DNA from: a virus
Taxonomy: Duplodnaviria > Heunggongvirae > Uroviricota > Caudoviricetes
Length of the DNA: 40,323 bases
Virus record (IMG/VR): IMGVR_UViG_650377933_000001
Coordinates: 1 to 40,323 of that record
Direction: 5' to 3' (one strand)
The position numbers and the translations under genes were made by a program. This document shows, piece after piece, positions 3,993-40,323 of the stretch. Under the pieces are notes generated by a model. It had not been told where the DNA came from, searched no databases, and saw only the letters and a program-made list of their open reading frames with translations. The first letter of the stretch is position 1, and each line of letters starts with the position of its first letter.

Positions 3993-4156
3993 TGGTTGCC
4001 TCCTTTGCGCCACATCGCATTCAGATATTTGTTTTGATTTACTGATGGAAAAGAATTTCTCTTAAGCAATTCCTCTCTCGATGGCATTGGCTTTACGCGT
4101 TGGCGAATAATCATTTCTGCCGGAAGAATGCCGGGATTGTATGCAAGTCCTCTCAT
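3989..4156 (-). CDS. Small hypothetical protein (55 aa, MRGLAYNPG...)
   Basis: GAGGAA RBS 7 nt upstream of ATG; stop coupled to the downstream GTG start. The longer 106-aa track ORF overlaps abc2 and is not favoured. Confidence 0.3.
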
Positions 4157-4166
4157 GGTAAATTCC

Positions 4167-17901: not shown

Positions 17902-18225
17902 ATGAAGATGCCAGAAAAACATGACCTGTTAGCCGCCATTCTCGCGGCAAAGGAACAAGGCATCGGGGCAATACTTGCGTTTGCAATGGCGTACCTTCGC
18001 GGCAGATATAATGGCGGTGCGTTTACAAAAACAGTAATCGACGCAACGATGTGCGCCATTATCGCCTGGTTCATTCGTGACCTTCTCGACTTCGCCGGAC
18101 TAAGTAGCAATCTCGCTTATATAACGAGCGTGTTCATCGGCTACATCGGTACTGACTCGATTGGTTCGCTTATCAAACGCTTCGCTGCTAAAAAAGCCGG
18201 AGTAGAAGATGGTGGAAATCAATAA
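17902..18225 (+). CDS. S: Holin S (lambda type, dual-start)
   Basis: 107-aa translation [39 protein letters not shown]... matches recalled lambda S, with Met1 and Met3 dual start. Confidence 0.9.
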
Positions 18226-18685
18226 TCAACGTAAGGCGTTCCTCGATATGCTGGCGTGGTCAGAGGGAACTGATAACGGACGTCAGAAAACCAGAAATCA
18301 TGGTTATGACGTCATTGTAGGCGGAGAGCTATTTACCGATTACTCCGATCACCCTCGCAAACTTGTCACGCTAAACCCAAAACTCAAATCAACAGCAGCA
18401 GGACGTTACCAGCTTCTTTCCCGTTGGTGGGATGCATACCGTAAGCAGCTTGGGCTGAAAGACTTCTCTCCGAAAAGCCAGGACGCTGTTGCACTACAGC
18501 AGATTAAAGAGCGTGGCGCTTTACCGATGATTGATCGCGGTGATATTCGTCAGGCTATCGACCGTTGCAGCAATATCTGGGCTTCACTGCCGGGCGCTGG
18601 TTATGGTCAGTTCGAGCATAAGGCTGACAGCCTGATTGTAAAATTCAAAGAAGCAGGCGGAACGGTCAGAGAGATTGAGGTATGA
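18209..18685 (+). CDS. R: Endolysin R (lytic transglycosylase)
   Basis: 158-aa translation [42 protein letters not shown]... matches recalled lambda R. Confidence 0.9.
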
Positions 18686-36794: not shown

Positions 36795-37304
36795 TTACCT
36801 ACCATGATTCTCATGATAACCATAGGTCTTTTCAGCCTCACGCCTTACAGCAATTGCATCATCGAGACTCTTAAAGTATCCGAGATTAATGCGCTTCCCT
36901 GCGTCGCTAATATATGCCACCCACTTTTTATGGGTCTTATGCCATGAAACCCCAGCGCACCCAGATGTATTGTTTGTGTATTTAGATTTGTTTTTTAGGT
37001 TTTCACCGAGACTAACTAGACGCAGGTTGTCTATTGAATTATTTAACCCGTTACCATCTTTATGGTCAATTTGCATTCCGGAAGGGATTTCACCATAAAA
37101 CATTTCCCATATTATCCTATGGGCGGCGTATATTTTATCTTGATACCTAATAATTATATAAGAGGTTTTCCTGTTCTTGTCCTTGAATATATGTCCTGCA
37201 GGCTTTTCTTTAGAGATATTAAACATTTTGGGTCTTGAAAGATATTGGTCACTCCAGTACAGGAGTCCATCGTCTTTTAATACGAATACTTCGTTCCAGT
37301 TCAT
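36795..37304 (-). CDS. HNH homing endonuclease with C-terminal AP2-like DNA-binding domain (169 aa)
   Basis: Start at MNWNEVFVLK with AAAGGTGG RBS; HNH motif ...QIDHKDGNGLNNSIDNLRLV...; C-terminal ...SGCAGVSWHKTHKKWVAYI...GYF...AIAVRREAEKTYGY resembles AP2 domains. The longer track ORF runs antisense into the tailspike start. Confidence 0.75.
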   Translation of the reverse strand: MNWNEVFVLKDDGLLYWSDQYLSRPKMFNISKEKPAGHIFKDKNRKTSYIIIRYQDKIYAAHRIIWEMFYGEIPSGMQIDHKDGNGLNNSIDNLRLVSLGENLKNKSKYTNNTSGCAGVSWHKTHKKWVAYISDAGKRINLGYFKSLDDAIAVRREAEKTYGYHENHGR

Positions 37305-37392
37305 GTTAACCACCTTTAAATAAAGTGCACTCATTATACAAAAAAACATGCTAGCAATGAATATTGCTGGCTTAACATATAGAGAAATTAAA

Positions 37393-39795
37393 ATGACAGA
37401 TTCAATAAATGCCAATGTTGTAGTGAGTATGCCTTCGCAACTCTTCACTATGGCGCGTTCTTTTAAAGCGGTTGCCAATGGCAAAATTTATATCGGTAAA
37501 ATTGACACTGACCCGGTAAATCCAGAAAACCAGATTCAGGTTTATGTAGAGAATGAAGATGGCTCTCACGTTCCTGTTGCACAGCCAATCATCATTAACG
37601 CTGGCGGGTATCCGGTATATAACGGACAGATTGCCAAATTCGTAACTGTACAGGGCCATTCTATGGCTGTTTATGATGCGTATGGTGCGCAGCAGTTCTA
37701 TTTTCCTAATGTGCTGAAGTATGACCCTGATCAGTTACGGCAGCAATTAGAAGACCCGGATGGTTCTAAAAAATATCCAGAATTGCAGATTGCACGATGG
37801 CGTGATGACAAAGACGTTCGCGGTTGGGGGGCTATCAGTGATGGAATAACTGACGCTACTGAGGCATTCTCTAACGCAGGCTATAGAATGTTTGTTCCTG
37901 ATGGCGATTTTGCAGTAAATACTCTCGAAGTTGATGTATCTTCTGCTCGAGGTATTGGGAGGATTGTTGCAGATAATGGCTCTCTTATTTCAGTTTCTCG
38001 TCTGCTTGAAACTGACAAACTTGCGCAGAGAAAAATGATGGAACCTTTTTTTGGTTTTCAGGGAGAAACAAACACAGAAATTTACCCTAATGCCAGAAAT
38101 GCGTTACAGGGGATCGCATATTGCCGTGTTAATGGCATTGAAAAACTATTTGTCACACAACGGCCTGTTGGGCCGACCTGGTCAGATAAAGAAAGAGTTC
38201 GTATTGTTGAGTTTAATCTTTATGATGATGGAAGGGTAGTAAACCATGTTGCGTATTCTCCAGAATTAAACCTTGGGCACGGTTTTGATCTTTCTGCCAT
38301 GGTGGAGAATGGTCAAGTATATTTATATACATCAAGTGTAACCAATTCAGGTGAAGATGGGGAGTCTGCAGGCAAAGGGTTTAGTAAAATAACTTGGCGA
38401 GGGGCAGGAACAACTCAGTCTGACGTAAAAAGTTATAATGTATGGGGGATTACTGGTAGCGGTCACCCATTTCAAGATTACAATCGTGCAGGAATTGCCA
38501 TTTCTTCTGACGGTCGTCTTTTAATAATGGTTAATACACCAAAGAGTGATGCCGCTAAACGAACTGTATTTATATACGATAAAATATCAATTGATAAACT
38601 TGAAGATAAAACATTAGCAAACCCCATGTTTGTTTGGGAAATGAGCGACTCACCTTCTGAAGGCGCTTACTCTGTACAAGGTATTGCGTCTGATGGAAGA
38701 TATATACATATACTTAAGGGAGGGGCTAACGCTTTTGGAAAGCATCATATCTTTACATATGATTTAACAGGTAATTTACTAAGAAAATTAGATATCGATG
38801 ATGCAAGGTCGCAATATGGGCGCGATGGGTTGCTTAACCATCCAACTCTTGGGAATCCAGCCAGATTTGAGCCGGAAGGTCTAACTATTCGTGGTGAAGA
38901 AATAATTATAAGCTGCATAGAAACATGGAGGGCAGGAGCTAATATTGTAAACTGGCGTGGAAGAAGATGGGCTGCATCATCCATTGAGACTTCTGGAATA
39001 ATTGGTGTCCCTCCATCAAATGGCTCTTATTGGGTAGAAACAACCAAGGATGCAAATTCTGGAGATTGGAGTCCTGAAATAGATTATGGATGGGGAAGTA
39101 GCTATTCTCTTGAGAAAAAGACAATTTACTCTATACGACCAGCGACTGGTAACAACGATGATCAGAACCTTAATTCTGGCATAACCAATGCTTCAAGTAA
39201 TGCAGGTGTAGATGCCGGAGAAAGCGGGCGAAATATATCATTTAGATGGCGCAATGCTTTTAATATTGTTGCATTTAGCGAACGTCTTGGTGAATACTTC
39301 AACGCTATTATGTATGATAATAGCTCAAGACTAAGAATATACGATCAGCAAAACGGTAGTGATAACACTGTTTATGGCTCAATCCAGGCACTATTTACGT
39401 CATCATTTAAGGGATTGATTTTAAGGGGTAGGGGGGTATCAGCATCAAATAGTTCCTATATTAGGTTACATTCATCTGATGATCCAAACTACCCAAATTC
39501 GATCATTGAAGGAACAAGAACAGATGGAAGTTTTTCCAGGGAAACAGATTCAAACGGAACCACTACATTCGCATCGGACTCAGAGCACGAACCGTTGCGT
39601 ATCAGAAGGGCTTCAGATGGTTTGTTGTTTGCATACGAGAAAGTAAGAGGTACAACTCTCTTTGGAATTTATAGAGGCTCCGGTTCACCTGAGGGTGTTG
39701 TGACCGCACCTCAGGGGTCAATGTATATTGATTATAATGGTGATTGGTATCAAAAGAAAACAGGAACAGGAAACACAGGATGGGTGTTAAAATAG
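37393..39795 (+). CDS. Tailspike protein: P22 gp9-like N-terminal head-binding domain fused to a divergent receptor-binding domain (800 aa)
   Basis: From [60 protein letters not shown]... the first ~115 aa match recalled P22 gp9; the remainder does not resemble the P22 endorhamnosidase as I recall it. Confidence 0.8.
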
Positions 39796-39824
39796 ACTAT
39801 TCTATTTTAATTGTTATCACTAAA

Positions 39825-39850
39825 CCACCTCCATTGGAGGTGGTATTTTA
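39825..39850 (+). terminator. Rho-independent terminator after the tailspike gene
   Basis: CCACCTCC-ATTG-GAGGTGG followed by TATTTTATT. Confidence 0.55.
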
Positions 39851-40035
39851 TTGTTTATATTTAAGATAACTAAGTGATTAGTAATAGAATATTATATCTT
39901 TATATCTATAGATTTTTATCACACTTACTCAGTTCATTTGTCATGTCAATAAGTTTATTTAAAAAGTTGATTAAGTTGAGTAATGGTTAAAGTTTTTATA
40001 CGTTTCCATAGGCCATATTTGACAAAGGAGTAGTA

Positions 40036-40323
40036 ATGGATATAACAGCTTTTCTTCACGCACTTTGCGCTGTTGTCGCACAGGCTCTGGTTGGTCTTTT
40101 TACCGGAAACTGGGCTTACGGTGCGATAGCAGGTTGTACGTTCTTCATTGCGCGTGAACACACCCAGGCAGAATATCGCTGGATAGAAAAGTTTGGGAAA
40201 GGGAAACGTATCAACATGCCATGGTGTGGAGGTTTTGATCCACGCGTGTGGGATGTGGGAAGTCTGTTGGATTTTTCTTTCCCAATTATCGGATGCTTAT
40301 TGGTATGGATTCTTGCATCGTAG
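40036..40323 (+). CDS. Hypothetical small membrane protein (95 aa), moron-like gene at the prophage end
   Basis: AAGGAG RBS 5 nt upstream of ATG; two to three hydrophobic segments; preceded by ~185 bp of very AT-rich DNA; stop codon is the last triplet of the window. Confidence 0.4.
   Translation: MDITAFLHALCAVVAQALVGLFTGNWAYGAIAGCTFFIAREHTQAEYRWIEKFGKGKRINMPWCGGFDPRVWDVGSLLDFSFPIIGCLLVWILAS

Follow-up and report, generated by a model that had tools for sequence, protein, structure and literature searches.

The right-hand end of the IMG/VR virus record IMGVR_UViG_650377933_000001 raises the question of why a P22-like prophage should carry, behind its tailspike gene and as the last gene before the end of the record, a single small gene for a membrane protein. 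The whole of this stretch of DNA, 40,323 nucleotides (nt) long, is referred to here as the window, and the gene in question is an open reading frame (ORF) of 95 amino acids (aa). The original prediction, made from the sequence alone, was of an AT-rich moron encoding a small membrane protein, situated where P22-like prophages keep lysogenic-conversion cargo such as O-antigen modification genes. The description has largely stood. There is AT-rich DNA past the tailspike terminator (191 nt at 23% GC, with a hairpin and T-run upstream), followed by a 95-aa ORF with a ribosome-binding site (RBS; AAGGAG at 5 nt) and three hydrophobic segments, and the final triplet of the window is its stop codon, a TAG that ends at 40323. 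The location is indeed the slot for conversion cargo, which is occupied by gtrABC in P22 and by the O-acetylase gene OafA in vB_EcoP-611R6, and the ORF is, as had been said, not of the gtr type (no Pfam match; an hhalign probability of 0.1% against P22 GtrA). The interpretation has fared less well. We are confident that the ORF is an intact phage gene belonging to the uncharacterised family PHROG 1443 and encoding an inner-membrane protein of ~95 aa with three helices. The constant feature of this family is its place, almost always directly behind a receptor-binding gene, in siphoviruses, podoviruses and myoviruses of Gram-negative bacteria.

The 95-aa protein matches phrog_1443 with E=1.4e-52, residues 1-94 aligning to positions 1-94 of the 97 in the profile. 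PHROG 1443 is labelled 'function unknown' and its members include GALLYPH_17 of phage Gally, PERCE_24 of Perceval, TRITO_22 of Tritos and HAPgp19 of phiHAP-1; other names in use for the family are 'FIG00639861' and, in one UniRef name, 'Ybl63'. Homologues form 256 clusters at 90% identity and 441 representatives at 50% identity, all of them stand-alone proteins of ~60-146 aa and all named hypothetical. The homology search advised in the original prediction has therefore yielded a family, although one without an assigned function anywhere. Scans of Pfam, NCBIfam and PADLOC returned sub-threshold noise only (the PhoR N-terminus and DoxA), the PhoR match being the sole one in Pfam at E<=1, where no acyl- or glycosyltransferase appeared. 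When all sequences in the PDB were searched with a profile there was no match at E<=10, fold searches with the structural model found generic helical bundles only, and nothing relevant on the protein or on PHROG 1443 was found in the published literature. Identity in a set of 46 distant members is 29-58%; R40, E41 and W72 never vary among them and H8, G29, Q44, A45, E46 and P83 are at least 90% conserved, and the signature residues H8, R40, E41, Q44, A45, E46, W72 and P83 are all present in the window protein. The ORF is a real gene: the family match is full-length, the homologue clusters are many and the invariant residues are under protein-level selection.

The suggestion of a small membrane protein agrees with both hydropathy, which gives the three hydrophobic segments, and an AlphaFold2 model built on a 43-sequence alignment (mean pLDDT, the predicted local distance difference test, 93.4), which places helices at residues 4-23, 26-53 and 74-94. 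Helices 1 and 2 are joined by a turn of 2-3 residues that is predicted to be periplasmic. Directly after helix 2 the family consensus reads GREHxQAEYRWI, and the signature of the loop in full is R40-E41-x-x-Q44-A45-E46-Y-R-W-I, then G-x-R-x-x-M-P ... G-F-D-x-R-x-W72. Counts of lysine plus arginine (K+R) average ~5.6 in the 40-75 loop and 0-0.5 in the N-terminus, the turn and the C-terminal tail, the last of which is 2-4 residues long with a mean of 0.4-0.5. Since K+R are concentrated in the loop, the positive-inside rule predicts it to be cytoplasmic. The protein is thus predicted to sit in the inner membrane with both its N-terminus and the conserved loop on the cytoplasmic side and only its C-terminus and the short turn facing the periplasm. 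H8, R40, E41, Q44, E46, W72, D79 and P83, the conserved residues, are located within or near this loop, which is 34-36 residues long.

The position of the gene was established from 79 loci of the E. coli type, in 78 of which the same-strand upstream gene encodes either a P22-type tailspike (663-912 aa) or a fibre with a Peptidase_S74 domain (227-346 aa). The gap to this gene is at most 45 nt in 72 of the 79 (median 10 nt), which implies late co-transcription with the receptor-binding gene, and it exceeds 100 nt in two loci only, the Gally type included. The family protein is 80-95% identical behind unrelated receptor-binding genes and is thus independent of receptor specificity. The gene order in lambdoid phages is an Stf-type fibre, a soluble protein of 92-93 aa (phrog_1361/18574), an optional S74 fibre and then the PHROG 1443 gene, and a block consisting of a fibre (phrog_1419/5939), the 92-aa protein and the PHROG 1443 gene recurs in distant prophages (loci L007 and L011). 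In phiHAP-1, a P2-like myovirus, the family gene follows the fibre-assembly (chaperone) gene and precedes the sheath gene. This is the Z/fun slot between G and FI, which in P2 itself holds fun(Z), a conversion gene that blocks T5; Fun(Z), at 528 aa and on the opposite strand, is unrelated to the family in size and sequence. Across 80 distant environmental viral contigs there are 58 distinct upstream neighbours, mainly tailspike, tail-fibre and other tail PHROGs, and those downstream are of many kinds (head-tail adaptor, scaffold, endolysin, amidase, the Avd gene and reverse transcriptase of diversity-generating retroelements (DGR), and unknowns). The rule of position is an empirical one, derived from the loci examined here.

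Two further observations concern these neighbourhoods. The ~92-aa soluble protein (phrog_1361/18574; L003 4723-5001, L005 3070-3351, L011 5723-6001 and L007 5475-5999) sits between a tail fibre of the lectin or carbohydrate-binding-module type and the PHROG 1443 gene from lambdoid phages to distant prophages, and may be a fibre chaperone or a partner of the membrane protein. In several of the environmental viral contigs (L097, L118-L120 and L144) the homologue lies between the gene for a tail protein of ~366 aa, which is the probable DGR target gene, and genes that match the Avd and reverse-transcriptase PHROGs of DGRs.

The family is common. Of 5426 complete E. coli genomes, 1827 contain homologous DNA, the median number of copies per genome being 2 and the highest 7; the adherent-invasive strain LF82 carries three copies, which belong to Gally, Perceval and Tritos. 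Beyond this species the family has been found in Leclercia, Enterobacter and Comamonas, in Halomonas phage phiHAP-1, in Aeromonas phages including 235-kb jumbo phages, more widely in Beta- and Gammaproteobacteria and Desulfovibrio and, more weakly, in Sediminibacterium genomes. It is carried by 72 of 50,697 phage records, and probably virulent phages are among its hosts. Escherichia phage HC6 and its relatives (47.7 kb, from sewage) contain a weak, unannotated homologue (L177, about 4001-4165; 34.5% identity over residues 41-95) in the gap after the last large structural gene, which may be a missed small gene.

In size, in its three helices, in its motif and in its place behind a receptor-binding gene the window protein matches the other members of PHROG 1443, and the window copy differs from its relatives only in the terminator and the AT-rich gap of 240 nt that separate it from the tailspike, a distance that is atypically long for the family. 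The features of the region are collected in Table 1. The hairpin has nine pairs, six of them G-C, and is followed by the tail ATTTTATTGT, and is terminator-like. The window has a mean GC of 0.472 and the spacer is its only 191-nt stretch with a GC of 0.27 or less, so that the low GC is not due to chance; the AT-richness is confined to the spacer, with the coding sequence (CDS) at 0.469. A scan for promoter consensus matches found 3 sites where 4.1 were expected, and the site in the spacer is not, by itself, above chance, although the RNA sequencing described below lends it indirect support. No Rfam family matched in a scan of 39600-40323, and a terminator scan found no terminator downstream of the ORF copy in LF82. 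As regards the traits of a moron, the upstream terminator is present and the only promoter-like site in the spacer is weak; 72 of the 79 relatives leave no room for a promoter of their own, while RNA sequencing (RNA-seq) hints at an independent start here. The gene is probably not the typical moron that had been proposed, given the short distance from the receptor-binding gene in most loci, the ordinary GC of its CDS and its background expression in lysogeny broth (LB), although it is induced in macrophages.

Table 1. Features at the right-hand end of the window, with positions counted from its first letter
Feature	Position	Strand	Basis
Tailspike gene, trailed by the 95-aa ORF	37396..39795	+	Pfam Head_binding, E=3.8e-65; 99.7% identity to Gally GALLYPH_16
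Intrinsic terminator of the tailspike transcript	39824..39854	+	Stem-loop 39824-39844, then T-run
AT-rich spacer	39845..40035	.	191 nt, GC 0.23, window minimum
Weak sigma-70-like site TTAAGA-18-TAGAAT, candidate conditional promoter	39861..39890	+	9/12 consensus match
Decayed 3' stub of a lambdoid tail-fibre gene, Peptidase_S74 (chaperone) type	39945..40022	+	Alignment to the fibre-gene end in JSWP006
Gally/Perceval (PERCE_24) identity patch, 84.2% over 252 nt	40024..40275	+	Nucleotide match and alignment
Shine-Dalgarno sequence AAGGAG	40025..40030	+	5 nt before the ATG at 40036; conserved in lambdoid copies
CDS, 95 aa, PHROG 1443 member	40036..40323	+	Identical to GALLYPH_17 / LF82_RS05040 / WP_000355430.1
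Predicted transmembrane hairpin: helix 1 (residues 4-23, near-invariant H8) and membrane part of helix 2 (26-39)	40045..40152	+	
Predicted cytoplasmic loop, residues 40-73	40153..40254	+	Conservation and K+R counts
Helix 3, residues 74-94; D79 and P83 conserved; C-terminus predicted periplasmic, no charged tail	40255..40317	+	

The origin of this arrangement can be read in part from the spacer. The DNA from ~39945 to the start codon at 40036 is homologous to the last ~90 nt of a lambdoid S74 fibre gene together with the 10-nt intergenic RBS. Translation of the stub gives VNKFI*KVD*VE*WLKFLYVSIGHI*, with three in-frame stops, where the intact counterpart ends in ...IQKLTERVDELESELKLLSVSRSDIG*. 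Half of the AT-rich spacer is thus the pseudogene remnant of a fibre gene and, because this stub is still attached to the ORF, the two must have come into genomes of the P22-like type as a cassette derived from the side-tail-fibre module of a lambdoid phage. In vB_EcoP-611R6 the stub, there annotated 'tail fiber protein', and the ORF follow an OafA-type O-acetylase gene. The order in that phage (L178 3906-5789) is OafA, the stub and PHROG 1443 cassette, and then int and tRNA-Arg. Since vB_EcoP-611R6 carries both, the cassette stacks onto true conversion cargo and does not replace it.

The ORF has also served as a site of exchange between phage types. Galper1 and Galper2 are hybrids of Gally and Perceval whose first junction was placed in a 256 bp region of 84% identity (PMC9928086). 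The junction primer OPM50 maps in PERCE_23, 124 nt upstream of PERCE_24, and OPM51 maps 44-61 nt downstream of GALLYPH_17. The sole homology between Gally and Perceval in the interval between these primers is the ORF described here, which identifies it as the crossover patch; it was through this ORF, therefore, that a structural arm of lambda-like type became joined to an arm for integration and replication of P22-like type. In codons 21-50 (40096-40185) synonymous diversity across 51 distinct E. coli copies falls to 0.10 as against 0.20-0.27 elsewhere, and codons 43-49 are invariant at the nucleotide level. The possibility of an embedded nucleotide element was considered and rejected, since distant homologues vary freely at the synonymous sites of these codons and the dip is absent among them. 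It probably results from recombination and exchange or from recent shared ancestry. The low-diversity codons coincide with the core of the Galper patch.

Over its last 528 nt the window shows 100% identity both to the chromosome of LF82 and to phage Gally (OV696608), a P22-like prophage of that strain in which the ORF is annotated as 'hypothetical protein'. Identification of the window as Gally itself was rejected; only 1-1992 (int/xis, 99.6%) and 37382-40323 (tailspike and ORF, 99.7%) match, and the remainder, between these Gally-like ends, is mosaic. Across the collection of complete E. coli genomes, at most 72% of the window's right arm is present in any one of them. With the int stop codon at its start and that of the ORF at its end, and with attL and attR outside, the window is a prophage cut at gene boundaries; 19 of 79 related IMG/VR prophage contigs likewise end exactly at the stop codon of the family gene. 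What lies beyond can be seen in the relatives. In LF82 the identical copy is followed by an 84-nt gene fragment and then by the host gene torT, in excised Gally the ORF is followed by attP and int, and in strain 19AR1724 the block of tailspike, spacer and ORF adjoins host ybhB at a different attachment site. The ORF is thus the terminal gene of the prophage right arm, before attR and without partners. From this terminal position it follows that the unseen downstream partners for which the original prediction left room do not exist, the next elements being the 84-nt fragment and torT, int, or ybhB. The same prediction had allowed that the ORF might turn out to be an isolated fragment or a host gene. 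It is isolated, but it is complete and conserved, not a fragment, and it is DNA of the phage and not of the host.

Expression of the identical copy in LF82 was taken from published RNA-seq of that strain (Misson et al., 2023; PMC9928086, S1 and S4 tables). In LB at stationary phase GALLYPH_17 has 18 normalised reads, compared with a prophage median of 15.6, and the authors state that Gally carries no moron (PMC9928086). On a scale of log2(fpkm+5), where fpkm denotes fragments per kilobase per million (also FPKM), its values are 3.8-4.5 in LB, 6.0-7.0 in cell-culture medium and 7.9-8.7 in macrophages, and at 6 h in macrophages the log2 fold change is +4.9 (q=1.3e-22), or ~30-fold (PMC9928086). 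In every condition other than LB the gene stands above the upstream tailspike gene (e.g. 8.4-8.7 as against 7.8), despite the terminator (PMC9928086). Terminator and AT-rich spacer would thus have uncoupled the ORF from the tailspike and, because the ORF mRNA exceeds the tailspike mRNA with a terminator between the two, the Gally-type spacer probably supplies an independent, condition-dependent promoter. Some nucleoid protein, for instance H-NS, could plausibly silence the AT-rich DNA in LB. The other copies behave differently, that of Perceval changing by +3.0 but staying below its upstream gene in level, and that of Tritos by +0.2 although its fibre genes rise (PMC9928086). The side-tail-fibre modules of Perceval (L095 655-3302) and Tritos (L193 1-3794) are themselves 13- to 230-fold up in macrophages (PMC9928086). 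The induced genes are those for Stf, the 92-93-aa protein and the S74 fibre, with J, lom and other tail genes at background, which suggests that in the lysogen the transcription of fibre modules does not depend on the late operon.

What the protein does must be approached from its position and its conserved residues. We favour, tentatively, the view that it is an inner-membrane accessory of the receptor-binding module with a protective or exclusion role, for example by interference with the genome entry of other phages. The functional surface would consist of the conserved cytoplasmic loop and, at the inner leaflet, of H8 and D79. Because the conserved surface is predicted to lie in the loop and at the inner leaflet, the protein would act on some conserved partner on the cytoplasmic side of the inner membrane, from the host or from a phage, and would do so independently of receptor specificity. 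Precedents for exclusion or conversion genes beside receptor-binding genes are cor of N15, sieA and gtrABC of P22, the conversion genes of epsilon15 and the fun(Z) slot of P2. The family is like these in kind but in sequence unrelated to all of them; hhalign of the family profile gives probabilities of 1% or less against GtrA, the epsilon15 inhibitor, epsilon15 gp23, the epsilon15 holin, Cor, lambda-type S, SieA and gp15.

The comparison with cor (of N15, phi80 and HK022, and also llp of T5) is instructive. Like the window gene, cor is a small gene directly after tail-fibre genes (gene 24 in N15), dispensable for virion structure and widespread in lambdoid prophages. Cor is described as an outer-membrane lipoprotein that acts on FhuA, whereas the window protein would be a polytopic inner-membrane protein lacking a signal peptide and lipobox; its N-terminus, MDITAFLHALCAV, has neither a basic n-region nor an L-(A/S)-(G/A)-C lipobox, and hhalign gives 0.2%. 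SieA of P22 and gp15 of HK97, the latter annotated as a moron product, have in common with the window protein a small size, a place in the inner membrane and a gene that lies in the late region of a lambdoid or P22-like phage or at the end of that region. However, hhalign gives only 0.2% and 0.3% respectively, and both have their own promoters and are expressed from the prophage, whereas the PHROG 1443 genes are mostly co-transcribed with late genes and the conserved face of their products is predicted to be cytoplasmic.

Several points weigh against an exclusion role. The family profile gives 0.4% or less by hhalign against each of P22 SieA, HK97 gp15 and N15 Cor, and PADLOC has no match. A conserved face that is predicted to be cytoplasmic, with little periplasmic exposure, would be unusual for a blocker of DNA entry. 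Unlike sieA-type genes, the gene is at background in an LB-grown lysogen (PMC9928086). The genes of the family are mostly transcribed with late genes and occur in probably virulent phages, and a role in the lytic cycle is equally possible. The promoter in the spacer, finally, matches the consensus at only 9 of 12 positions, which is not above chance. A wider proposal, that PHROG 1443 is a near-universal inner-membrane partner of receptor-binding modules, acting either as a new exclusion or immunity factor at the cytoplasmic face or as a minimal oligomeric membrane enzyme the size of DgkA, must be considered doubtful. We do not think that the protein is a glycan-modifying enzyme (gtr, oac) or a lysis protein or holin.

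Were the role confined to the lytic cycle, the protein might be a late membrane-anchored helper in the maturation or attachment of the receptor-binding protein or in progeny release, with nothing to do in the lysogen. Such a helper would account for the strict linkage to receptor-binding genes on the same strand and at a very small gap in three tail morphologies, for the recurrence of the three-gene block of fibre, 92-aa protein and PHROG 1443 gene from E. coli to distant prophages, and for the presence of the gene in probably virulent phages. P22-like tailspikes, however, are known to fold and attach without accessory proteins, and S74 fibres, which carry an intramolecular chaperone, need none. 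The sequence of the family does not vary with the kind of receptor-binding protein that it accompanies, the gene is missing from many phages of the P22-like and lambdoid groups, as its frequency among phage records indicates, and the Tritos copy is not co-expressed with its own fibre genes in macrophages. On this balance we judge a helper role rather unlikely.

A lysis-related protein that is produced late along with the tail gene products, whether as an additional holin, as an antiholin or to set the timing of lysis, is unlikely. The small size, the three transmembrane helices and the late co-transcription are all of the right kind, and holin genes directly after fibre genes are found in T7 (17.5) and T4 (t). 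The closest relatives from outside E. coli lie directly upstream of a lysis cassette (L007, L010 and L011), and at some distant loci an endolysin, amidase, holin or spanin gene is found within three genes downstream. The window, though, already contains lambda-type genes for an S holin and an R endolysin (17902-18685). The lysis cassettes that accompany the family are unrelated to one another, which argues against a specific antiholin, and most downstream neighbours are not lysis genes. Class I holins such as lambda S and P22 gp13 share with the window protein a length of ~100 aa, three transmembrane helices and late expression. The window protein differs from them in its predicted topology, which is the opposite, in having no charged cytoplasmic C-terminal tail and in its long conserved cytoplasmic loop. 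There is no Pfam or PHROG holin match, Phage_holin_8 giving a non-significant match in 1 of 46 relatives (E=0.0036), and the hhalign probabilities for lambda-type S and the epsilon15 holin are 0.7% and 0.3%, respectively. The level of a few hundred FPKM in surviving intracellular LF82 also speaks against lysis.

Lysogenic conversion of the O-antigen or lipopolysaccharide (LPS), by a polymerase inhibitor of the epsilon15 or D3 kind or by a minimal enzyme acting on lipid-linked intermediates at the cytoplasmic face, we regard as distinctly unlikely. The argument for it is again one of location, the slot being used by gtrABC in P22, by an O-acetylase in vB_EcoP-611R6 and by a polymerase inhibitor with two transmembrane helices beside the epsilon15 tailspike. 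The P22 genes, the O-acetylases of the Sf6/611R6 type and the epsilon15 inhibitor share with the window gene the interval from tailspike to attP and int, a membrane protein as product and conditional expression from the prophage, the prophage copy here being expressed in macrophages. The His, Glu, Asp and Arg residues that are conserved on the cytoplasmic side of the membrane resemble an active or binding site. The window gene is, in contrast to such cargo, a single 95-aa gene on the strand of the tailspike and not a divergent operon, does not co-vary with receptor specificity, is silent in an LB-grown lysogen and has no relationship to any of these genes in sequence (hhalign 0.1% for GtrA and 0.07% for the epsilon15 alpha-polymerase inhibitor, NP_848230; no acyl- or glycosyltransferase in Pfam). 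Proteins of the GtrA type have ~120 aa and four transmembrane helices (PF04138) and belong to a three-gene operon between tailspike and attP, and enzymes of the Oac/OafA type (Acyl_transf_3) have more than 300 aa and ~10 transmembrane helices, none of which applies to a protein of 95 aa with three helices and no Pfam match. In vB_EcoP-611R6 the true OafA gene stands beside, not instead of, the PHROG 1443 gene. O-antigen machinery is hypervariable, whereas the family protein retains 80-95% identity behind differing tailspikes and fibres in strains of many O types, and is also found behind side tail fibres of the lambdoid kind whose C-terminal domains are lectin-like, as well as in phages of distant taxa. 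The modification of O-antigen put forward in the original prediction is thus not borne out, the protein being near-identical behind tailspikes and fibres of differing specificity and present also in probably virulent phages. The hyp24 gene of phage Kapi1, tested and negative for O-antigen conversion, was considered as a homologue and rejected; it is a 34-aa ORF on the opposite strand between tailspike and int. Because hyp24 is not homologous, its negative LPS results do not apply here.

That the ORF has no protein function here and is a hitch-hiking remnant, its only effect being to provide homology for recombination between phage types, would be in keeping with its arrival together with a dead fibre-gene stub, with the documented crossover patch in the Galper hybrids, with the low synonymous diversity in codons 21-50, which suggests frequent exchange, and with silence in LB, but the ORF is intact in 79 of 79 close loci while the adjoining stub has decayed, its strong RBS has been kept, its expression is regulated, and conservation of the protein is so deep (invariant residues at 30-40% overall identity, with distant synonymous sites varying freely) that a purely passive hitch-hiker is very unlikely.

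The gene had been annotated before, as hypothetical, and for a P22-like prophage there is nothing unusual in where it lies; it is the family that deserves attention. PHROG 1443 is among the most frequent E. coli prophage genes without a known function, its invariant motif invites mutagenesis, and LF82, in which the identical copy resides, is a Crohn's-associated, adherent-invasive strain. Crossover in PHROG 1443 DNA lets lambda-like and P22-like prophages swap whole modules. If the protein is truly an exclusion or envelope factor, it would bear on host-range prediction and on the design of phage therapy against E. coli, and if it is a fibre accessory, on the engineering of receptor-binding modules.

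Two other loci in the window merit mention. The lambda-type lysis pair at 17902-18685, a 107-aa holin followed by a 158-aa lambda R-like endolysin, lies inside a P22-like genome, and the holin is one that we take to be nearly identical to lambda S107. Directly upstream of the tailspike and divergent from it, on the minus strand at 36795-37484 with a probable start near 37304, there is an ORF with HNH and AP2-like motifs (IDHKDGNGLNNSIDNLRLVS...GVSWHK..KKWVAYI) that is absent from Gally. This region is ~96% identical to phage Kapi1, in which the equivalent gene is annotated as an HNH endonuclease, and the ORF is likely to be a homing endonuclease in the variable immI/ant region.

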